This document shows, in pieces, positions 24 through 64,000 of a DNA stretch of 64,000 nucleotides (position 1 is the stretch's first letter; each line of letters starts with the position of its first letter). Source of the DNA: a virus (taxonomy: Duplodnaviria > Caudoviricetes); IMG/VR virus record IMGVR_UViG_3300035696_003004, positions 1 through 64,000 of that record; one strand, 5' to 3'. The position numbers and the translations under genes were made by a program. Below the pieces are notes generated by a model that was given only the letters and a program-made list of their open reading frames with translations, ran no database searches and was not told the origin of the DNA.

Positions 24-1091
24 ATGGATGAACCAATTTACGGAATCGATGAACAGCAAATAGATATTCCGAAATTTCATCATTCGGTTGGATTCAAGAA
101 TTTGTTTGCTGCATTGATTCAGTCACAATCTGAATTTAAGCCGGTACCGAAGAACAAAACGGCATCGATTTATAGCCCAAAAACAGGAAAGACGTATAGC
201 TATAAATATGCCGATTTGGCCGATATATTGGCGATGGCACTTCCCGTGCTAACTAAACACGATTTGGGAATCATTCAGCCTAACGTTTTGGTTAACTCAC
301 AACTGCGTATTGTCACGCATTTGATTCATTCAACCGGTGAATGGATGTGCGGCGACGGTTTTGCATTGATCGAAACAGGGCCGCGGCAGGATGTTGGGAC
401 AGACGCCACCTATAACCGTCGCTATGACCTTTGCAGTTTGCTGGGCATCGTTGCCGACGAAGATATCGACGCGCAAAAGGATATGCTGACAGAGCCGCCA
501 ACCGTTCGACAACCGTCTCCTTCGAGAACCAACCAAGCGAAGCAAAAGCCGCAAACAGAGCCGGATTCATACCATTCAGCCGCCGAAGAACTGCTTAATC
601 ATCGGGACGAAATTATCGCCAAACTTAAATTGCTAGAACCCAGCGCTCATAATTTGGGGCAAATGGCCAAAAAGATGTTCCCCGGCCACGAAAACACCAA
701 AACGCTGACGGTTCCAGATTTAGAGCATTTGCTAAAAACGCTGAAAAAAGAGAAAGCGCCAGCTGCGGCTTTTGAACCGCCCGTTCTTCTTACCCAGGAA
801 ATTCCCCTGGAAATACCGCCGGATGTAGAGGATATGTTTGACGAAGGCGTAGTGACCACGGCTAGCCGGCTGCAAGGCCCGACGATTGGCAAAGGATTGG
901 CCCAAAGGCTGCATAAGCTCATTGGCATCCACAAAATCCACACGGAAGAAGAGCTAAAGAGGGACTACTTGGATCCTGTTGGCTTGGAGCATGTGTCGGA
1001 TCTGCCCCGTGATCTCTATGATTCGCTTTGCGCATGGGCCGAAGGAACATTGGAAGAAGGAAGTGCCGTAAACGAGGAGCAAAAGCCTTGA
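24..1091 (+). CDS. erf: ERF-family single-strand annealing protein
   Basis: N-terminal ERF motifs: YKYADLADI, HSTGEW, GTDATYNRRYDLCSLLGIVADEDID. Confidence 0.85.
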   Translation: MDEPIYGIDEQQIDIPKFHHSVGFKNLFAALIQSQSEFKPVPKNKTASIYSPKTGKTYSYKYADLADILAMALPVLTKHDLGIIQPNVLVNSQLRIVTHLIHSTGEWMCGDGFALIETGPRQDVGTDATYNRRYDLCSLLGIVADEDIDAQKDMLTEPPTVRQPSPSRTNQAKQKPQTEPDSYHSAAEELLNHRDEIIAKLKLLEPSAHNLGQMAKKMFPGHENTKTLTVPDLEHLLKTLKKEKAPAAAFEPPVLLTQEIPLEIPPDVEDMFDEGVVTTASRLQGPTIGKGLAQRLHKLIGIHKIHTEEELKRDYLDPVGLEHVSDLPRDLYDSLCAWAEGTLEEGSAVNEEQKP

Positions 1092-2337: not shown

Positions 2338-3024
2338 ATGGAAATCGATTTTAATGCGGATCCAGAAGAGCAACAGCTAGCGCTGGCAAAACCTGAATTG
2401 CTTATGCCTACGGGCTTTGACCTCAAGCAAACGGCAATGCGGCAAGAGATGCAAGCGGTTGTGCGTTATTCCGCTGGCATTGTGGACGCTGGCATTATCT
2501 CGATTGAAGAGCATGAGAAAGCCATCGAGGCAGGGCGACTTTTGCAGGTAATGACAAAGAACATCACCGACTTTTATAAACCGATCAAACAGATGATTGA
2601 TCGACTAAAGCAGCCGATTCTCGATATGGAACATGCGGATTCCGATGCGGTAAAAATCGCCAAGGAATCGCTGGCATCGGCGATCCAAGATTTTGAGCAC
2701 AAGCAGGCAGAGGCGGAAGCGGCACGGCTCCAGGAGGCTCTTGCAGCGGCTCCAAAGGGCGCGGAAGGGGAATTGCCTATGCCAGTGATCGTGCAGGCCA
2801 CTATGCCAGCTAAAACGCGCGGCAAAGTGGATCGTACGCGCTGGGATTCCGCAGTTGTGGATTTTCCCAAGCTAGTTCATGCGGTCGATACCAGCGAAGT
2901 GCCCATAGCCGCGTTGCTGCCCAACCAGCGCTACCTCGATAAACGAGCAGATGCTGATCGTGAAGGGTTTTCGATTCCGGGCGTGATTGCGCGCAAAACG
3001 GAAAAGATTCATTTTCGCGCTTAG
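2338..3024 (+). CDS. conserved-looking phage recombination-module protein, function unknown
   Basis: RBS AAGGAAA; coiled-coil core; C-terminal IPGV motif. Confidence 0.6.
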   Translation: MEIDFNADPEEQQLALAKPELLMPTGFDLKQTAMRQEMQAVVRYSAGIVDAGIISIEEHEKAIEAGRLLQVMTKNITDFYKPIKQMIDRLKQPILDMEHADSDAVKIAKESLASAIQDFEHKQAEAEAARLQEALAAAPKGAEGELPMPVIVQATMPAKTRGKVDRTRWDSAVVDFPKLVHAVDTSEVPIAALLPNQRYLDKRADADREGFSIPGVIARKTEKIHFRA

Positions 3025-3035
3025 TCCAAAAAGGG

Positions 3036-3064
3036 TTGACAGAATTATGGAAGATCCTTTCAAT
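3036..3064 (+). promoter_or_regulatory. putative sigma70 promoter
   Basis: TTGACA-17 nt-TTCAAT. Confidence 0.4.
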
Positions 3065-3146
3065 AAAAGCAGTGCGCATTGTGAGCGCGCAAAAATCGGC
3101 TGCCAGCGGGAATTGACCCCTCTTGCTGTGAGTAGGTGCCGAGCAG

Positions 3147-3196
3147 ACGGCGTAGGACGGCACTTCCTCGGCGCCAGTCCTACGCCGTTTTGTTTG
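3147..3196 (+). terminator. terminator/attenuator hairpin in the leader of the Xis-like gene
   Basis: 12-bp stem ACGGCGTAGGAC/GTCCTACGCCGT, 18-nt loop, then TTTGTTTG. Confidence 0.6.
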
Positions 3197-3301
3197 TTCG
3201 TAATATATTTATCGTGTTGTATTAAGTTCCAAAAAGGGGTAGAGTAAGTAAGTTTTTCTGGAACGGCTCCCATGAACCAAATGGTAGACGGAGGTTTCAC
3301 A

Positions 3302-3571
3302 ATGAATACAATGAGCAGCAAACAGTTGGAGCCGCTAATCAATGCGGTTGATGCGGCCAAATACTTGGGATTTGCTCCGTTGACTGTGCGTCGGATGGCG
3401 CGGTCTGGAAGAATACCATCGATCGCTTTTCCCGTTGGAAACGCAGGAAAACACCTGCACAAATTCCGTATGTCGGATCTGGAAACCTACGTAAAGTCGT
3501 TGGAGTACCAAATGCCCGTACCAGCAATCAAGGAAGCGCCGCAATCCGATCAGCCATCGGATTCGCTTTAA
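3302..3571 (+). CDS. excisionase-like helix-turn-helix protein
   Basis: LINAVDAAKYLG...TVRRMARSGRIP, HTH_17/MerR-like; next to the integrase. Confidence 0.75.
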   Translation: MNTMSSKQLEPLINAVDAAKYLGFAPLTVRRMARSGRIPSIAFPVGNAGKHLHKFRMSDLETYVKSLEYQMPVPAIKEAPQSDQPSDSL

Positions 3572-3600
3572 GGCGGTTTGCCCAAGGCTTTAATGAGCGG

Positions 3601-3652
3601 GGGGAGAATTTCTGTACTGCGGTACAGATTTGATTCTCCCCTCCTTTTTTTA
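3601..3652 (+). terminator. intrinsic terminator
   Basis: GGGGAGAAT..CTGTAC/GTACAG..ATTCTCCCC stem followed by a T run. Confidence 0.6.
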
Positions 3653-3666
3653 TTGGCAAACACAGA

Positions 3667-3940
3667 TAGGGGCATTTTTGGGGGCATATTAAAAATACTG
3701 GACTCTATCTTTAAGAAAATAAAAGATAATTTCATTCCTCGGTGGAATGCAATATACGCGCATCAACTACGACTTGCATCGACTTTTTAGATAAAAATTG
3801 AACGTTTTTATTGTTGAAAATAAATAAGTTCTGCGGTATAGTCAATTTTGTTGAGCGATCAATCTCGACTTGGGGGCATTTTAGCTTTTTATGCAAAATA
3901 CCCCCAAGTTGGGGGCATTTTTTGGGGCGAAATGCCCCCA
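3667..3940. repeat. attP-like region with integrase arm-type repeats
   Basis: TTGGGGGCAT at 3678, 3870 and 3909, inverted copies near 3898 and 3932; AT-rich; between xis-like and int genes. Confidence 0.6.
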
Positions 3941-3995
3941 TAAAAATCCACTGAACAAGCGTTATAAAGCGGAATGCCGGAAAAGGAAACGAAAA

Positions 3996-5231
3996 ATGAA
4001 ATTGAACAATTTGAAGTGCGAAAAGGCCAAGCCGGCAGCCAAGCCATACCGCTTGACTGATGGTGGGGGCCTCCGTTTGCTGGTGATGCCGACTGGTGCC
4101 AAGCTATGGCGCTGGAAGTATCGTTTCGAGGGCAAGGAAAAACAGATGGCTCTCGGCAAGTATCCGGAAGTTCCACTGGCGCAGGCGCGAATGCTCCACG
4201 CTGCCGCTCGTGCCAAGTTGGCAAACGGCAATGATCCGATGACCGAACGGAAAGAGAATAAGGAACAACAAAAAGCTGAACTTGATGAGGGAAAAAAAGC
4301 CGCGACGCTTACCTACGGATCATTGGTACGACAATGGTTTAATTGGTGGGGAAAAAACAAAAATCCGAAATATGCATTGCAAGTTGAAAACTTGATAGAA
4401 AAATATATCATTGCTACGCTTGGCAAGAAATTGCCTGCACAGATTACCCGGTTGGAGATTATAGCCATTGTTCACGCAGTCGATGAAAGCGGTACTCGTG
4501 AAACGGCGAGACGAATTCTTCAATTTATCTCTCAGATTTTTGTGTTTGGCTGTGACCGCGGACTAATTTTGTCGACTCCGGCTGCCGGTATTAAACCGAG
4601 TAACATACTAAGTCAACCAATCGATCATGGTGGTCGTGCACATTTGCCTATTGCGGAAGTGCCAGAACTATTGGCCAAAATGGATGAGTATGACGGTAAT
4701 GTTTTAACACGAATTGCCATGCATCTATTGAGCCTAACATTTTTGCGCACGCGCGAACTTTTGGATGCGCAGTGGAATGAAATCGATTGGGAGCAAAAAC
4801 AATGGCGCATCCCGCCCGAGCGCATGAAAATGAAAAGGCCACATATTGTTCCTCTGGCAAAACAAACGGTTGGATTACTCAAACGTCTTCATAATCTAAC
4901 CGGCGAAGGCGAATGGTTGTTCCCTAATACTCGTGGTGATACAAAGTCGATGACCAGAGGAACCTTTTTGTATGCATTAAAGCGGATGGGCTACAAAGGC
5001 CGTATGACCGGCCATGGTTGGCGTGCTATCGCTTCTACTTGGTTACATGAACACGGTTTTACGCACGAGCACATCGAATTGCAGCTGGCTCATTCGTCGA
5101 ACGACAAAGTTTCGGCAGCTTACAACTTTGCAAAGTATCTTGCTGATCGCACCGTCATGATGCAAGCGTGGGCGGATGCGCTCGACGAAATGAGGAACAA
5201 AGGCGAGCATCGGTTGCAAGTCGTCGCTTGA
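3996..5231 (+). CDS. int: P4-type tyrosine integrase
   Basis: Arm-binding N-terminus (LTDGGGLRLLV..TGAKLWRWKYR); catalytic R (FLRTREL), HGWR, LAH and Y (AAYNF). Confidence 0.95.
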   Translation: MKLNNLKCEKAKPAAKPYRLTDGGGLRLLVMPTGAKLWRWKYRFEGKEKQMALGKYPEVPLAQARMLHAAARAKLANGNDPMTERKENKEQQKAELDEGKKAATLTYGSLVRQWFNWWGKNKNPKYALQVENLIEKYIIATLGKKLPAQITRLEIIAIVHAVDESGTRETARRILQFISQIFVFGCDRGLILSTPAAGIKPSNILSQPIDHGGRAHLPIAEVPELLAKMDEYDGNVLTRIAMHLLSLTFLRTRELLDAQWNEIDWEQKQWRIPPERMKMKRPHIVPLAKQTVGLLKRLHNLTGEGEWLFPNTRGDTKSMTRGTFLYALKRMGYKGRMTGHGWRAIASTWLHEHGFTHEHIELQLAHSSNDKVSAAYNFAKYLADRTVMMQAWADALDEMRNKGEHRLQVVA

Positions 5232-5443
5232 ACTTTGCGGGTGGCTGTGGAAAAAGGCAAAAATCGCGGCCACCCGACAAAATATTTTATATAGCTGTTA
5301 GGACTTTTACGATCAATTTATAAGTCCAATTACGACTCGAATCGACATAGATAGACTTATCTTTTTGTTTTGCAGATTTCCACAATTGCTCTTCCTATTG
5401 CAAAAAAAATAGGACTATAGATAATGCGTCATGGGGATAATCC

Positions 5444-5656
5444 ATGAGTAAAAATACTAGCCCTCCCAAAGAGCAGCTGCCTTTTGTTCTTCGCAAAAAG
5501 CAAGTCGCAAAAATGCTCGGTTTAAGCGAAGCCACCATTTACAAAAAGCAGAAAGCAGGCGTTTTTCCCTTGCCGGTAAAGCTGGGGAATCGCGCCATTG
5601 GTTGGCTAACCGTTGACATCCAAAATTGGTTGGCCGAACGGGCAATTAGCAAGTAA
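5444..5656 (+). CDS. alpA: AlpA-family regulator / recombination directionality factor
   Basis: LRKKQVAKMLGLSEATIYK...FPLPVKLGNRAIGW. Confidence 0.85.
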   Translation: MSKNTSPPKEQLPFVLRKKQVAKMLGLSEATIYKKQKAGVFPLPVKLGNRAIGWLTVDIQNWLAERAISK

Positions 5657-5681
5657 TTGTAGTGCATCGAGTAAACACTAC
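5653..5681 (+). repeat. solitary CRISPR-repeat-like unit
   Basis: GTAATTGTAGTGCATCGA shares TTGTAGTGCATCGA with the array repeats; forms hairpin GTAGTG/CACTAC. Confidence 0.35.
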
Positions 5682-6815
5682 GTGGCTGCCTACTATAACG
5701 AGATCAATCCATTAAAAGCCGAGATTATAAGACAAGCTATTCAGGCTGGTGCCATTGCGTCTGGAGATGTTGATGATAGAAGCATCATCGAAGTACAAGC
5801 AACCGACCTTGTGGGATATACCCAATGCCACTTCTTTGCTGGCGGAGGATTCTGGTCGCTTGCGCTCCGGCAAGCTGGATGGCCAGACGAGCGACCAGTT
5901 TGGACGGGAAGTTGCCCATGCCCAAGTTTTTCCGCAGCGGGCAAAGGACAAGGGTTTGCAGACCCTCGTCACCTCTGGCCTGATTGGATACGACTCATCC
6001 GCGAGTGCCGACCTGCAGTCATTTTTGGAGAACAAGTTAGTGCCGCAATTGGACATGGCTGGCTCGACCTTGTTCAAACTGACTTGGAAGCGGAAGCGTA
6101 CGCCGTTGGGAAGATCGTATTTGGAGCGTGCAGCGTCGGCGCACCGCACATTCGACAACGGCTTTACTTTTTGGCCAAGTCCGAAGGCGTCAAATGCGGG
6201 GCCGGATTACGCAATTCTCAATCGACCAAACAGTGGCGGGATCAGCATAGCGACGGCTGCGGCGCTGGCATCGTGGACGACGCCGAAAGCAGAAGACTCG
6301 GAATGCGCGGGAGCGCATCGGGGCAAGCCAGACACGCTGCACAGCCAAGCGAATTTGGCGGCATGGGCGACACCGGCCGAGCGGGATTATCGGACAGCCA
6401 ACTTGAAGAGCTTTGCGGAACGTGGCGGAGGCAAGAAGGGCGAGCAACTACAAAACCAAGTGAAATTGCTGGCTGGCTGGCCGAGCCCATGCACGCCGAA
6501 CGGCGGGCGATCGATGTCGACGAAGGTTATGGATGCAACGGGGAAAACGCTGGACGGCAAGAAATATACGGCGAGTTTGGAGCACGCAGTAAAGTTTGCA
6601 GGCCCGGTCCGCTTAACGGCTTCTGGCGAGATGCTGACTGGATCGGATGCAGAGATGGCAAGTTCCGGCCAGTTAAACCCGGAACATTCCCTTTGGCTAC
6701 AGGGTATTCCGGACGTGTGGGTCTCCTTCGCCTTGCGGGCGATGCAATCTGCGTGCCTGCGGCGCAAGCGTTCATTGAAAGCTACCTTGAAATTAACGAG
6801 TCAAGAGGCCAATGA
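5682..6815 (+). CDS. C5 cytosine DNA methyltransferase (main polypeptide)
   Basis: HFFAGGG (motif I), GSCPCPSFS (IV), GEQV (VI), HIRQRL (VIII), LRLAGDAI (X); GTG start inferred. Confidence 0.85.
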   Translation: MAAYYNEINPLKAEIIRQAIQAGAIASGDVDDRSIIEVQATDLVGYTQCHFFAGGGFWSLALRQAGWPDERPVWTGSCPCPSFSAAGKGQGFADPRHLWPDWIRLIRECRPAVIFGEQVSAAIGHGWLDLVQTDLEAEAYAVGKIVFGACSVGAPHIRQRLYFLAKSEGVKCGAGLRNSQSTKQWRDQHSDGCGAGIVDDAESRRLGMRGSASGQARHAAQPSEFGGMGDTGRAGLSDSQLEELCGTWRRQEGRATTKPSEIAGWLAEPMHAERRAIDVDEGYGCNGENAGRQEIYGEFGARSKVCRPGPLNGFWRDADWIGCRDGKFRPVKPGTFPLATGYSGRVGLLRLAGDAICVPAAQAFIESYLEINESRGQ

Positions 6816-6822
6816 AATTTGA
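5749..6822 (+). CDS. overlapping alternative-frame ORF carrying a motif-IX-like segment (putative beta subunit)
   Basis: 357 aa open frame nested in the MTase gene; WPSP/WTTP/WATP repeats; GQLNPEHSLWLQGIPDVW. Confidence 0.55.
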   Translation: MPLRLEMLMIEASSKYKQPTLWDIPNATSLLAEDSGRLRSGKLDGQTSDQFGREVAHAQVFPQRAKDKGLQTLVTSGLIGYDSSASADLQSFLENKLVPQLDMAGSTLFKLTWKRKRTPLGRSYLERAASAHRTFDNGFTFWPSPKASNAGPDYAILNRPNSGGISIATAAALASWTTPKAEDSECAGAHRGKPDTLHSQANLAAWATPAERDYRTANLKSFAERGGGKKGEQLQNQVKLLAGWPSPCTPNGGRSMSTKVMDATGKTLDGKKYTASLEHAVKFAGPVRLTASGEMLTGSDAEMASSGQLNPEHSLWLQGIPDVWVSFALRAMQSACLRRKRSLKATLKLTSQEANEI

Positions 6823-7712
6823 TGGATTCCAAGGTCGATATATGGATGCCGTTGGCAATTGGAGATTACCTTGCGGATACATCGCACTTAAACACGACAC
6901 AGCACGGGGCGTATCTGCTGCTGTTAATGCACTATTGGCGAAAGGGGCCTTTGCCGAATGATCCCGAACAATTGGCAAACATTACCAAACTTTCAATGGA
7001 TGCTTGGAGCATTAACCAAGCAGTACTTATGCAATTCTTCGTAGTTGGCGAAGATAGCTTGCTTCATCAAAAACGCAGCGATCGAGAAAGAAAGGTTTGG
7101 ATGGATAAACGAGCAAAAGCGCAAGATAAGGCGTCAAAGGCCGCAAAAGCGCGCTGGAAAGATGCTTCAAGCATAACTTCGAGTAATGCTCAGAGCAATG
7201 CACAGGCAATGCTTAATTCATGCCCGTTACCATTACCTTTACCTTTACCATTACCATCACCATTACCAATACCTAAACCGCTTTTACCGGAATTTGCAAA
7301 AAACGCAAATTCCTCGTCAAGCGCTGACGCGCTCGACAACTGTTTGGAATCTGAATTTTCCTTTGACGAACCGATTCAACCAAACCTCACACGCGAAGTG
7401 GTATTGCAGAACGTTTATCAGCATTACCTGAAGCAAACTGGACGAAAAGCGAGCATGTATGCCTTAACCAGCTTGCGAAAGCAAAAGGCGTGCGCCCGGA
7501 TGGACGAAGCCTTGGCTGGGCTTGCAGATGGCAGTTTGGAAAAGGCGCAGCTGCTCATGATGGCCGCCATCGATGAGCTGGTGAACGACGACTGGCACAT
7601 GGGCCGCAATCCGAAAACCGGTGGCAAAAAGTTCATTGAATGGGAAACCCATTTGTTTGGCAGTAGAGAGATTTTTGAAAAGTGGATTCGATCGGCTGCC
7701 GAAGGGAATTAG
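6819..7712 (+). CDS. DUF1376/YdaU-family replication initiator
   Basis: WMPLAIGDYLADTSHLNTTQHGAYLLLLMHYW. Confidence 0.85.
   Translation: MMDSKVDIWMPLAIGDYLADTSHLNTTQHGAYLLLLMHYWRKGPLPNDPEQLANITKLSMDAWSINQAVLMQFFVVGEDSLLHQKRSDRERKVWMDKRAKAQDKASKAAKARWKDASSITSSNAQSNAQAMLNSCPLPLPLPLPLPSPLPIPKPLLPEFAKNANSSSSADALDNCLESEFSFDEPIQPNLTREVVLQNVYQHYLKQTGRKASMYALTSLRKQKACARMDEALAGLADGSLEKAQLLMMAAIDELVNDDWHMGRNPKTGGKKFIEWETHLFGSREIFEKWIRSAAEGN
7150..7275. repeat. candidate replication origin inside the initiator gene
   Basis: ATGC/GCAATGC repeats, then tandem TTACC(A/T) hexamers encoding PLPLPLP. Confidence 0.35.
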
Positions 7713-19321: not shown

Positions 19322-19942
19322 ATGGAAATTGCTGCTATCTCGGATACGCATGGCTATGATTTCGATCTGCCGACGGCGGATGTATTAGTGTGTGCCGGCG
19401 ATATGACGGCGACGGGTCGATGGGAGCAAATGATTGCCGTTGGCGAATATATAAAATCCGCAGCTTACGATCATGTAATTTTGGTGCCGGGCAATCACGA
19501 TTTATGTTTTGAGAAAGCTTTGGAGTTGGCTGCTTACAACTTCCCATACAACTTTCATTTGCTGGTAGACCAAGCTTGTGAGTATCAAGAGCATGTTTTT
19601 TATGGATAACCGTGGACTCCGCCATTTATGAATTGGGCGTTTATGCGTTCAGAAGACGAGTTGCGATGCTTGTATCGCAATATGCCGGCCGAGATTGATG
19701 TATTGATAACCCATGGACCCCCTGCTGGCGTGCTAGATAATCATTGTGGCTCGACTGCGTTGCGGGAAGCCGTGGAAGCGCGTAAAGTTCATTATCATGT
19801 TTTCGGTCATATACATGAATGCGGTGGTCTTCACCAACAACTAACAAGTAATGGCCAAAAAACCGATTGCTATAATGTGGCGGCGCTGGGGCTAGACTAT
19901 CGGCCACCAACGCGCGCGCCACGTATTATTCACGCTGTCTAA
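19322..19942 (+). pseudogene. calcineurin-like metallophosphoesterase interrupted by in-frame TAA at 19607
   Basis: SDTH, AGD, GNHD, FYG*PWTP, THGPP, GHIHE motifs all in one frame. Confidence 0.75.
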
Positions 19943-29651: not shown

Positions 29652-30098
29652 GTGGGCAAAAAGTTATGTACAGCGAGTAGAAAGCAGGTTCCGGCGATTG
29701 TTGCGGAGGTGCTGGCGGCTTTAAGTTTGTCTGATGAAAAGGAGATTGTGTCGGAGATCCAGCGTCTGCAAGAGTGTGCGCTCGAACTGATCGAATTGAA
29801 GCGATCCTTTTTTCGTATTGCGCAGATGTTCCTCGTGGAACATAAAGGGCTTCACCCTTTGAAGCTTACGGCTGAAGAAAGCTACCAGATAAATCGGATC
29901 ATTACGGATGCGGATATGATGGTTGAGGAACTACAGTTTGAAAATTACCGGTTGCGGAAGGAACTAAAAAATCTTATTGGCAAGGCGCAAAATAAGAGGC
30001 AAAATGTCAAGAAGCAGGTGCATCATGGCAACAAAAGCGGAAAAAGAAAAACAAGCACTTCACAAAGAGTGCAGGGCCCGACGAAGCGAATGGATTGA
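29652..30098 (+). CDS. hypothetical helical protein
   Basis: GTG start with GGAGG RBS; 148 aa. Confidence 0.65.
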   Translation: MGKKLCTASRKQVPAIVAEVLAALSLSDEKEIVSEIQRLQECALELIELKRSFFRIAQMFLVEHKGLHPLKLTAEESYQINRIITDADMMVEELQFENYRLRKELKNLIGKAQNKRQNVKKQVHHGNKSGKRKTSTSQRVQGPTKRMD

Positions 30099-30267
30099 AT
30101 TTCGGAGAAAGTATTTGTTTACGCAGAAGCGGCTGGCGGAAGTTTTAGGGATCAGCCGGCGAACGGTACAGATGATCGAAGGTGAGCGGGTTGAAAGGCC
30201 GCATCCGGACACGCTGCGGGCATTCCTTACGCTCAAGATCAAGCACGAGCGCGGCGAAACGATGTAG
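30025..30267 (+). CDS. XRE-family HTH protein
   Basis: FTQKRLAEVLGISRRTVQMIEG...P..DTL. Confidence 0.8.
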   Translation: MATKAEKEKQALHKECRARRSEWIEFRRKYLFTQKRLAEVLGISRRTVQMIEGERVERPHPDTLRAFLTLKIKHERGETM

Positions 30268-30274
30268 CGCTTGG

Positions 30275-30928
30275 CAGTGCATCGGACAGATGCAACCGCT
30301 GCGTCGAAGGTCCGAGTATGCAACAACCAAATGGCAATGGTTTTGTAGTGCATTGAGCTAATGCAACTCCGATGTATTGGAACTTACAAACGACAACGTG
30401 GAGTAGCAACAAATTTGCAGTGCATTGAAAAATGCAACGGTATTTTCCACGACGAAAGCTTTGTAGTGCATCGAATGGATGCAACAGATAGGGGATATCC
30501 GCGTATACTTTTCCCGACACGTATCAAGTAATTTGTAGTGTATCGGATGAATGCAACCTAATACTGTATCTACTCCGGCTCAAGCTAAGGCGCGTATCAA
30601 GTAATTTGTAGTGCATCGGATGGATGCAACGTCAAACGTACAATTGTCAAAACGTTAATTTGATCGGCACAACAAAGTCGCAGTGCATTGAATAGATGCA
30701 ACCCCCACATCGCTGCGTTTGTAGGATTGGAAATACGTGGCAACAAACAAGCTGTGCATCGGGCAGATGTAACACCGGCCAATCCGCAAGCAGTGTGCTG
30801 CAAAGCACAACGACATGGCCTCTACGCTAGTGAGTTCACTGAATAAGTGAAACAACTCAAGGTGAATGCAGAGCGTTGGACAAACGCAACGGCTTCGAGA
30901 AATCGGGAGTGCATCAAACAAATGCAAC
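30275..30928 (+). CRISPR. degenerate CRISPR-like array, about 12 units, no cas genes nearby
   Basis: 36-37 nt repeats at 30331, 30403, 30521, 30594, 30666 and 30737 with 34-36 nt spacers; truncated units end at 30296, 30485, 30811, 30853, 30890 and 30928; same repeat family as the 62.9 kb array. Confidence 0.75.
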
Positions 30929-61935: not shown

Positions 61936-62874
61936 ATGGTCCTTATGCAACCAAGCGCTAAAATACTTGCTGCGTTCGAAAGATGTCCTCGCATGGCTTT
62001 TTGGATGCGTTCTTGGCAGCAATACAAAATGGATGACATTCAAATGCTTCAAGCGGGTATACGAATTGGTGTTATGGAAATGGAGCGTAAGGATTGGGGA
62101 CAGGTTGCTGGTGAACAAGTTTATGCGCTCGGCCTCGAACCTGGTTTAGAAACAAATTACTTTAATGTGCATGACCAAGTTGTTCATTTGGCTTCGATTG
62201 CCGACATTGTAACAACGGCTATACGAAAACAACAAGAAAAACCTTGGGGTATACCGCCACCAGTGCTATTGGGAAAGCAAGGGTTGCAATGGAATTCTTC
62301 TGCTTATATTGATCCGTCTGGTTCGCATTTGCGAAGGATTGTTTTAGTATCGAATTGGTCCGATGAACGGCATTACAGCGAAGCGCGATCCTATTTTTCG
62401 TTAGGTGAAGTTTGTGCATATGGTTTGCCAATGCAGCAGGTAGTTATTGTGCTGGGTCAGAACCGAAGTGGAAAGCGACATTCGGCATGGACAAAGGGAT
62501 TTCGGCACCCACGAAATAAGAAACTGCGTTTTCGCAAAAAAAATGATGTCACTGTGCCATTTAATTCAAATTGGGATAAAGTATGGCGAGAGGATTTTAG
62601 CGATATTTCTACGCACGATTGGTTACAAGCAATGTTGGATGATGGCGTTCTTCAAGATCATTGCTTTACGGTTCAAATTGATGTGCCGATCCAGATTACT
62701 CGAAAACATATACTTGATTTAATGATGCGTAAGCTTGAAGCAATTGAAAAATTAAATACACTACCCGATGAACAAATGACCGGCTGTGACTGGCCTTATA
62801 AATGCCAATTTCGTAAGCCGTGTCATTCTGGCGGCGAGCCGAAAGAGGGGGTATTTAGAGTGATTGCGCAATAG
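61936..62874 (+). CDS. Cas4/AddB-like PD-(D/E)XK-fold protein, nuclease motif apparently degenerate
   Basis: N-terminal S..L..FERCPR and C-terminal C-x5-C-x5-C (1+3 Cys Fe-S staple pattern); no clear D/ExK motif. Confidence 0.55.
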   Translation: MVLMQPSAKILAAFERCPRMAFWMRSWQQYKMDDIQMLQAGIRIGVMEMERKDWGQVAGEQVYALGLEPGLETNYFNVHDQVVHLASIADIVTTAIRKQQEKPWGIPPPVLLGKQGLQWNSSAYIDPSGSHLRRIVLVSNWSDERHYSEARSYFSLGEVCAYGLPMQQVVIVLGQNRSGKRHSAWTKGFRHPRNKKLRFRKKNDVTVPFNSNWDKVWREDFSDISTHDWLQAMLDDGVLQDHCFTVQIDVPIQITRKHILDLMMRKLEAIEKLNTLPDEQMTGCDWPYKCQFRKPCHSGGEPKEGVFRVIAQ

Positions 62875-62880
62875 TGCGTT

Positions 62881-63131
62881 GTTGCATCTATTCGATGCAT
62901 TACAAAACCGTTGCTACTCGAGCTGGTGGCTTGGATCTAGCCAAACCACATAGTTGCATCTGTTCGATGCACTACAAAACCGTTGCTACGGAACAACTGC
63001 GACTTGAAAACGAGGCGTTTCTAATTGCATCTGTTCGATGCACTACAAACCGTTGCTACATACTCTTCCGCACGACCAAATCGTAAATGGCCAAGTTGCA
63101 TCTGTTCGATGCACTACAAAACCGTTGCTAC
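62881..63131 (-). CRISPR. CRISPR mini-array, 4 repeats and 3 spacers
   Basis: 37-nt repeat GTAGCAACGGTTTTGTAGTGCATCGAACAGATGCAAC (minus strand) at 62881, 62953, 63024 and 63095; spacers 35/34/35 nt; most diverged repeat at the trailer end. Confidence 0.92.
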
Positions 63132-63307
63132 AACACAATTATAACTATTTTGTTTTGAATGGCCACAAGCTGCTTTCCGCGAACCGCGTAAATTTGTGCT
63201 TTTCAATTGTAACGAGCGGCACAATACTCATTCTATCTCTTTCAAAATCAGCATATTATCCCTTCCGCAAACTTTTTGAAGTTTTACCGAAACTGAAGGT
63301 TCGCGCA
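63132..63307 (-). promoter_or_regulatory. array leader with promoter
   Basis: AT-rich; minus-strand TATAAT ends 6 nt before the first repeat. Confidence 0.6.
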
Positions 63308-63961
63308 TTAGTGCCATTCGCCGCTGGCAACGTCACTGTCGTTAAGAAATTTGTTCTCGTCTTCATTATCTCCCAAGTTGGCGCTGACTGCCGCACCGCG
63401 AGCACGTGAAGCTCGTGGTGGATGAATGACATTTTGAATAGAATTTGGCTGAATAACTGCGGGTAATGGGGAATCGGAAACGATTGCTGCAAGATCAGGC
63501 TGGTTGGCTTCTAAGCGATTTGGTAGATTATCGCTTAACGATGCTATCGCTGTCTGCTGATTCCTAAGTGCCGCAATTGTCTGCTGCAGCGAAGGAATTT
63601 CGGCATTAAGAACCGCCCAAAGATTTGCAGCTTTTGCGCGTTCTTCAATTGCTTTTGCCAACCTTTTTTCGGCCGCGCTTAGGGCAACGCCAAAAACTTT
63701 ATTATTACCCGATTGACGAAGGTGCCTGCGTGTCTTGTTACGTGTAGATACAGACTTATCATTTAATGCCCTACACGACAAAGTTGAACTTTGGAGTATA
63801 TCGCCAATCTTTTTGTTTCTATTAGACCATCTAGCTTTAGCTGCCTTACTTGCTAATTCATGTCGTTGCTCGCTGGTAAGGTTTTTCATTCTTGCGGCAC
63901 CTGCTTGAGCATTTTGACTAATAGATACTGGATTAATTACAGCTTGTTCATTCATAACCAA
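63308..63961 (-). CDS. hypothetical protein with a basic helical motif and coiled coil
   Basis: ARMKNLTSEQRHELASKAAKARW motif; may start outside the window. Confidence 0.6.
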   Translation of the reverse strand: MVMNEQAVINPVSISQNAQAGAARMKNLTSEQRHELASKAAKARWSNRNKKIGDILQSSTLSCRALNDKSVSTRNKTRRHLRQSGNNKVFGVALSAAEKRLAKAIEERAKAANLWAVLNAEIPSLQQTIAALRNQQTAIASLSDNLPNRLEANQPDLAAIVSDSPLPAVIQPNSIQNVIHPPRASRARGAAVSANLGDNEDENKFLNDSDVASGEWH

Positions 63962-64000
63962 TGCCTTTTTAAAACTATCTACGAATGCCAGCGAAAATGC

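Follow-up and report, generated by a model that had tools for sequence, protein, structure and literature searches.

The virus record IMGVR_UViG_3300035696_003004, of which the first 64,000 nucleotides are here called the window, carries near the right end of that window a small CRISPR array with no cas gene beside it, and the question raised by this locus is which protein its guides serve. An earlier note, made from the letters of the window, had read it as a Cas-less mini-array that borrows host Cas proteins. This reading was not supported by the parent contig, on which a compact effector gene and a primary array lie to the left of the window; more probably, the locus belongs with two or more other crRNA arrays to a prophage-carried CRISPR system.

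The mini-array is read on the minus strand, because its trailer and leader are placed accordingly and the leader is conserved there. In transcript order, it consists of a leader-proximal repeat of 37 nt (63095–63131; in crRNA sense GUAGCAACGGUUUUGUA-GUGCAUC-GAACA-GAUGCA-AC, with a 6-bp 3' hairpin of −8.5 kcal/mol), spacer 1 (63060–63094, 35 nt), a second repeat of 36 nt (63024–63059) whose U-run is one U short and whose last base is U rather than C, spacer 2 (62990–63023, 34 nt), a third repeat of 37 nt identical to the first (62953–62989), spacer 3 (62918–62952, 35 nt), and a terminal repeat of 37 nt with two substitutions (62881–62917). One of these two substitutions falls at G18, just 5' of the stem, a position that is invariant in 129 members of the repeat family. 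Three copies of the repeat match at ≤3 mismatches against 0.00 expected in 100 shuffles, and the fourth is an indel variant; the four near-identical repeats and three unique spacers described in the earlier note were thus confirmed, at repeat lengths of 36–37 nt, as was the polarity marked by a diverged trailer repeat. The locus has what is generally asked of a CRISPR array: at least three direct repeats of 23–50 nt with unique spacers of comparable length between them, a promoter-bearing leader on one side and a degenerate repeat on the opposite side. If the crRNA is built as repeat-then-spacer, as in type V systems, the trailer repeat would guide nothing, and the changed last base and 1-nt deletion of the second repeat may have weakened one guide.

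On its trailer side, the array adjoins the stop codon of a gene for a Cys-rich 312-aa protein (61936–62874, plus strand), which closes the structural block and is convergent with the array; homologs of this gene adjoin arrays in eight related loci among those listed. The leader end faces a non-coding stretch of 176 nt, and upstream of the array and co-directional with it lies a gene for a 232-aa protein with no assigned function (63308–64000 within the window, minus strand, ending at record position 64006), homologs of which flank arrays of 2–18 units in relatives.

The conserved leader (63132–63211, minus strand) contains a −10 element, a −35 element and a TTCAAAACAAAA box, with a GCGGTTCGCGG palindrome upstream. 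Over its 80 nt it shares 57–61 identical positions with array leaders in four unrelated contigs, one of which is the Telmatobacter bradus chromosome, against at most 53 of 80 in shuffled controls; the −10 element, the TTCAAAACAAAA box and an upstream GCG-GTT-CGC palindrome are common to the leaders compared. The promoter-like site on the minus strand pairs a −35 hexamer TGGCCA (63165–63160) with a −10 hexamer TATAAT (63143–63138) across a 16-nt spacer and scores 10 of 12, a match that by itself is not above chance (one found, 1.7 expected). The TATAAT ends at 63138, 7 nt before the first repeat, so that transcription would begin at about 63131, on the first base of this repeat. As judged from the sequence, leader and putative promoter are conserved across phages and one host genome, and the claim of the earlier note that the array possesses its own leader and TATAAT promoter was borne out by this comparison. 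The imperfect palindrome (TTTxCGxGGTTxGCGGAAA; window 63166–63200, minus strand) is itself conserved, lies ~35–55 nt upstream of the leader's −10 element, and has equivalents in the leaders of loci L028, L073, L098, L102, L116 and L134; it may be an operator for some regulator.

The repeat hairpin was used to scan public collections (IMG/VR, GTDB genomes and peat metagenomes), which placed the mini-array in a large family. Arrays of this family were found in 11 IMG/VR stretches, in about ten Acidobacteriaceae genomes (including Telmatobacter, Terracidiphilus and bog MAGs) and in at least 120 peat-metagenome stretches, giving at least 112 loci of no fewer than three units each and at least about 1300 units overall, always with a period of 70–74 nt. 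In crRNA sense, the repeat comprises a variable 5' half, a hairpin of 6 bp whose loop has 5 nt, and a tail AC; in phage arrays, the 5' half varies from unit to unit and the last 21–23 nt are nearly invariant. The upper three pairs of the stem covary (AU/GC/GU, UA/CG and CG/UA): across 129 distinct units, 97.7% of cells are paired, and double-change cells number 74 versus 27 in shuffles, with none of 500 shuffles reaching 74. Conservation limited to the spacer-proximal hairpin is as expected for a type V crRNA handle, with the repeat preceding the spacer. Readings of the repeat ends as Cas13b-like (GTTG...CAAC), as Cas6-processed type III (an 8-nt tag) or as Cas12f (GTTGCA...ATGCAAC) were dropped, since the position of the leader set the orientation and a neighboring effector was found. 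Rfam gave no CRISPR-DR family match for this repeat, only sub-threshold chance matches (tracrRNA and a miRNA). The repeat type, which the earlier note had singled out as a point of interest, is type V and Cas12m-like, and its family arrays reside in Acidobacteriaceae genomes.

Members of the effector family are encoded neither in the window nor elsewhere in the 72,987-bp IMG/VR provirus record. The 664-aa and 573-aa proteins near the mini-array were considered as hidden effectors and rejected, nothing in them being Cas-like; as products of the structural block, both probably form part of the tail, and no Cas-like match was obtained for the 573-, 664-, 312-, 232- and 1320-aa proteins of this neighborhood in Pfam, PHROGs, PADLOC, NCBIfam or PDB sequences. 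Beyond position 64,000, where an effector might also have been sought, the right flank (64–73 kb) contains no cas gene and instead carries genes for glycosyltransferases, methyltransferases and HNH proteins as well as six tRNAs. The record begins exactly at the gene for an ERF recombinase; this gene, with which the window opens (24–1091, plus strand), served as the anchor for locating the parent contig. The exact ERF protein was found on ENA contig ERZ27256985:k141_312841 (142,900 bp) and on JGI contig Ga0326724_0000189; the former agrees with both ends of the record at 100% identity, across 11,091 bp on the left and 11,787 bp on the right, the latter stretch containing the mini-array. Directly upstream of window base 1 on this contig lies recA (window coordinates about −1050 to −1), preceded by a primary array of 14 units (about −2340 to −1400) and by the gene for a 742-aa Cas12m-like protein (−4578 to −2350). 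The effector gene is therefore located in the same genome, 2.4 kb beyond the left edge of the window and 65 kb from the mini-array—the situation that, according to the earlier note, would make this an ordinary phage CRISPR-Cas system. The provirus boundary drawn in IMG/VR falls between recA and the ERF gene, so that recA, the 14-unit array and the effector gene were cut off; that these belong to the phage is indicated by the syntenic relatives L066 and L074, in which the gene order is effector, array, ERF. The Cas-less look of the mini-array is thus an artefact of provirus trimming.

The element is integrated, since its right flank passes into genes typical of an Acidobacteria chromosome (TonB-dependent receptors and GH30), and the phage is temperate. 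Its genes encode the ERF protein, a PD-(D/E)XK nuclease, an excisionase-like HTH protein, an integrase, methylases, a primase-helicase and a terminase. The tyrosine integrase and excisionase-like genes are internal (window 3891–5231), with phage genes on either side. Toward the right end, HNH endonuclease genes and a glycosyltransferase/methyltransferase block—probably lysogenic-conversion genes—precede a cluster of six class II tRNA genes (Leu-UAA, four Ser and Tyr; record 71868–72762, L004:9868–10762), beyond which the sequence continues as host-type (L169:12456–20513). Two solitary repeat units that form perfect hairpins, 225 bp apart, occur in the host intergenic region right of the prophage (L169 ~19609–19644 and 19834–19869; record ~80844 and 81069), with a TonB-dependent receptor gene just downstream of them; in Acidobacteriales bin_175, the orphan array likewise lies upstream of a CarboxypepD_reg receptor-type gene. 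Neither cas1, cas2 nor cas4 was found in this phage; for Cas1, the search covered the 72,987-bp record and the called genes of its flanks.

When ORFs near the arrays were clustered, a protein of 690–770 aa with RuvC and zinc-ribbon domains was recovered 6–139 bp from arrays at eight loci among those listed. The C-terminus of this family matches Pfam PF07282 (Cas12f1-like_TNB), and in a profile comparison with PDB, Cas12m chains ranked ahead of TnpB and Cas12f (E 3e-12), the alignment spanning the N-terminal helix, the RuvC-I 'DxGWR' segment and the RuvC-III/zinc-ribbon end. Structural comparison placed the protein in the same neighborhood: with an AlphaFold2 model of pLDDT 84.3, Foldseek returned Cas12m2 (8hhl; E 1.3e-20, TM 0.55) first and GoCas12m (8pm4; 3e-18) second, with Cas12f (5.7e-12), Cas-lambda and the rest far lower. 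The 742-aa effector of this phage retains both the D-E-D RuvC triad and the CxxC..CxxC zinc ribbon. It shares only 13–14% identity with the solved Cas12m proteins and is ~140 aa longer, and it is therefore regarded as a sister clade of Cas12m rather than a close member; at this distance, its activity (binding or cutting) and RNA requirements are extrapolated. Clustered at 90% identity, the family falls into at least 113 groups; not one is annotated as Cas or named Cas12, the annotations being hypothetical, zinc-ribbon or transposase proteins. RuvC changes occur among the homologs, with Asp-to-Asn in RuvC-III of the Acidobacteriaceae chromosomal copies (L029 and L129) and Asp-to-Glu in RuvC-I of L074. 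In L029, the N-terminus of the effector (128–2364) lies in another frame, as two matches at 155–295 and 280–2364, which may reflect a frameshift. The effector homolog is followed there by a 3-unit array and an outer-membrane efflux gene.

Further repeat units are dispersed over the phage genome. The diversified sister array in opposite orientation that the earlier note had pointed out is real: it comprises ~11–12 units (30260–30928, plus strand), directly follows an XRE-type HTH gene (29977–30267), and has repeats much more diverged than those of the mini-array. At its far end (window 30775–30928), some stems are wholly rewritten (GUUCAC..GUGAAC and GAGCG..CGCAAC), in units ~38 nt apart that leave little or no spacer. 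A degenerate solitary remnant of the repeat (5646–5681, plus strand) lies between the integrase region and a C5-methylase gene, and arrays also occur near the integrase in relatives of this phage. Arrays in the relatives occupy fixed junctions, namely beside the effector, between xis and int, after the HTH gene (a site also occupied in L005, L009 and L011), and between the 232-aa and 312-aa genes, the site of the mini-array, at which relatives carry 2–18 units. In the 130-kb relative L074 (Ga0224518_1000001), positions 2934–7140 hold the Cas12m-like gene, cas4, cas1 and cas2, then an array and the ERF gene, and the clade as a whole thereby departs from adaptation-less V-M systems. No effector match was found in two array-carrying phage records (G006, 82% complete; G010, rated 100% complete), and array-only phages may accordingly exist in the clade.

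Related arrays are also present in host chromosomes. The effector sits beside short arrays, with an efflux gene adjacent, in some Acidobacteriaceae chromosomes (L029, L127 and L129). Telmatobacter bradus DSM 23630 (NZ_CP184532 ~1031870–1032332; L028/L033) carries an array of seven identical repeats and unique spacers, preceded by the conserved leader that the mini-array also has, and further units lie at 1032586, 1034135, 1034207 and 861635–861728; this complete genome lacks Cas1 and, in a family-profile search that included a positive control, gave no effector homolog. Cas genes next to the host arrays were looked for and not found in Telmatobacter or bin_175, both of which thus have orphan arrays, and the CRISPR loci of bog_218 that do include cas1 have repeats unrelated to the family of the mini-array.

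What the guides recognize was addressed at several scales. All three mini-array spacers lacked a match in IMG/VR when searched as exact 20-mers, one of them was not found in 401 Acidobacteriaceae genomes at ≤3 mismatches over 27 nt, and none had a protospacer in 1.43 Mb of related phage and host DNA, a set that included five whole related phage records; the targeting of competing viruses suggested by the earlier note could thus not be demonstrated for this array. The absence of a self-target, which the earlier note had judged by eye, was upheld across the phage's own 95.9 kb, where the longest exact matches were 10–12 nt, as for shuffled spacers. When 619 unique spacers of the family were compared with the same 1.43 Mb, no phage-borne spacer matched a phage, and the sole convincing protospacer belonged to a spacer of the bin_175 orphan array (L047 ~11994), which matches four phages of the clade at 31 of 34 positions (L175:15741–15769, L177:6727–6755, L181:7441–7469 and L186:7824–7852). 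This protospacer has CATCC at its 5' flank, the only PAM clue obtained, and two of its three mismatches fall within the first five (PAM-proximal) positions, a possible escape pattern. The match of a host spacer to phages of the clade, together with the relative that carries cas4-cas1-cas2, shows that the repeat family belongs to a real immune system.

Among known systems, type V-M (Cas12m, formerly V-U1; MmCas12m2 8HHL/8HIO, GoCas12m 8PM4 and UnCas12m4a 23VU) is the best profile and fold match. Cas12m matures its pre-crRNA by itself, works without a tracrRNA, and protects through DNA binding instead of cleavage (PMC11013384, PMC10442227); published variants with an intact D-E-D triad are also non-cutting (PMC11013384). 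V-M systems show enrichment on plasmids and occur in some prophages as well (PMC11656645). The phage system resembles them in its single compact RuvC and zinc-ribbon effector, the array directly downstream, carriage on a mobile element, the lack of cas1, cas2 and cas4 in this phage, and a 3' structure of the repeat that would be consistent with a self-processed crRNA handle. It differs in that the effector measures ~740 aa rather than ~600 aa, at the low identity given above and with D-E-D intact, that several arrays with leaders of their own are scattered across 65 kb, and that the 5' halves of the repeats are strongly diverged; moreover, V-M systems are described as free of adaptation genes, whereas some relatives here carry cas4-cas1-cas2.

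Other phage- and virus-borne systems are less close. Cas-less mini-arrays of viruses (Sulfolobus SPV1/SPV2, Medvedeva 2019; survey by Faure 2019), as summarized in PMC11656645, use host effectors and have spacers matching related viruses. On that summary, the present locus is similar in its very short array, temperate virus, accessory genes and probable part in inter-virus competition, but differs in that the effector is phage-encoded and no spacer match was found; this prophage is not a virus without cognate cas genes. CasPhi (Cas12j), Cas-lambda (Cas12l), the Cas12 'hacker' (V-P) and MvCas12m are likewise phage-borne miniature Cas12 systems that come with a short array and mostly lack an adaptation module, and the CasPhi repeat also ends in a hairpin and AC, but fold and profile place the present effector with Cas12m rather than with Cas12j, Cas12l or Cas12p. 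Identity with the V-P 'hacker' was rejected, that system being tracrRNA-dependent and of a different fold neighborhood. MvCas12m of a myxophage has 610 aa and one array (bioRxiv 10.64898/2026.09.14.751636), in contrast to the multiple dispersed arrays and Acidobacteriaceae host here. RNA anti-CRISPRs (Racr) and crRNA-like regulators share the placement of CRISPR repeat units in phages away from cas genes; they are solitary repeats, or regulatory mini-arrays with partial matches, directed against host Cas, whereas the mini-array combines a regular repeat-spacer structure and full-length unique spacers with a canonical leader and an effector of its own.

Taken together, we consider it likely that the mini-array is a functional satellite array that feeds the phage's own Cas12m-like effector. 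Because the effector is encoded on the same contig, the array is placed as the distal satellite of a phage-borne, adaptation-less type V-M-like system, and its hairpin is common to the array beside the effector gene. In the mechanism that we propose, the mini-array would be transcribed from its own minus-strand promoter, perhaps with additional read-through from the 232-aa gene, and the effector would cut the pre-crRNA upstream of each 3' hairpin to leave a handle of ~20–30 nt followed by the spacer. Such cutting would account both for the conservation of only the 3' part of the repeat and for the freedom of the last repeat to decay. The three guides would then direct the effector to matching DNA, where binding would probably block transcription or replication, as with Cas12m; cleavage would still be possible in this scheme because the D-E-D triad is intact. 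The likely role would be to keep competing phages or plasmids out of the lysogen, with new spacers gained either through recombination with relatives that bear cas4-cas1-cas2 or through adaptation in trans.

A first alternative is that the mini-array is a decaying remnant, left over from an array that was once longer at this junction and has ceased to be expressed or useful. Relatives hold 12–18 units at the same junction as against three spacers here, two of the four repeats are mutated, and the spacers found no targets; two repeats, however, are identical over all 37 nt, even in the half that is free to drift in the rest of the family, which favors recent duplication or acquisition over long decay, and the leader and promoter are intact and conserved. 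We therefore regard a remnant as unlikely. Equally tentative, and in our estimate improbable, is a broader proposal in which the dispersed arrays, each behind a conserved and possibly operator-controlled promoter, would form a programmable repressor network, the DNA-binding Cas12m-like protein being loaded with one guide set or another from arrays in separate operons as lysogeny and infection proceed; conversely, orphan host arrays such as that of Telmatobacter bradus could be 'unarmed' guides that capture the effector of an invading phage of the clade and turn it against that phage. If true, host orphan arrays would reverse the usual direction of borrowing.

Borrowing in its usual direction, with the phage supplying guides alone and the host supplying the Cas12m-like protein, finds some support in the Acidobacteriaceae chromosomes that encode the effector beside short arrays and in the two array-bearing phage records without an effector match, but an effector on the same contig makes borrowing needless and the chromosomal homologs seen carry the Asp-to-Asn change in RuvC-III, and this explanation appears distinctly unlikely. 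About as unlikely is an RNA decoy, acting as an RNA anti-CRISPR or a crRNA-like regulator, whose repeat transcripts would sequester or redirect a host Cas12m-like effector rather than guide interference: solitary phage repeats and mini-arrays in such roles have been published (PMC10651486; bioRxiv 10.1101/2024.10.29.618823), the bin_175 host array targets this phage clade, and the sister array follows an HTH gene in an acr-aca-like layout, but the full-length unique spacers, canonical geometry and ordinary leader, the intact effector kept by the phage, the adaptation genes at the equivalent locus in relatives, and partial spacer matches to promoters that are not above chance all stand against it.

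With the mini-array read as a satellite of the phage's own system, several points are new. Phage-borne V-M systems have scarcely been described, and a 2026 preprint on the myxophage Cas12m claims the first V-M in a phage (bioRxiv 10.64898/2026.09.14.751636). The present system adds a distant, larger Cas12m-like clade in Acidobacteria phages, and the combination of many dispersed arrays, independently conserved leaders, and repeats diversified outside the handle is likewise new. Trimming of the provirus in IMG/VR had removed the cas gene and left a seemingly Cas-less array, and surveys of Cas-less viral arrays that are based on trimmed records may overcount them. From a biotechnological perspective, the compact effector and its simple 3'-hairpin guide are a candidate programmable DNA-binding tool. 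For the biology of these phages and their hosts, the repeat is now tied to a previously unnamed Cas12m-like clade that resides in temperate phages and in the chromosomes of peat-soil Acidobacteriaceae.
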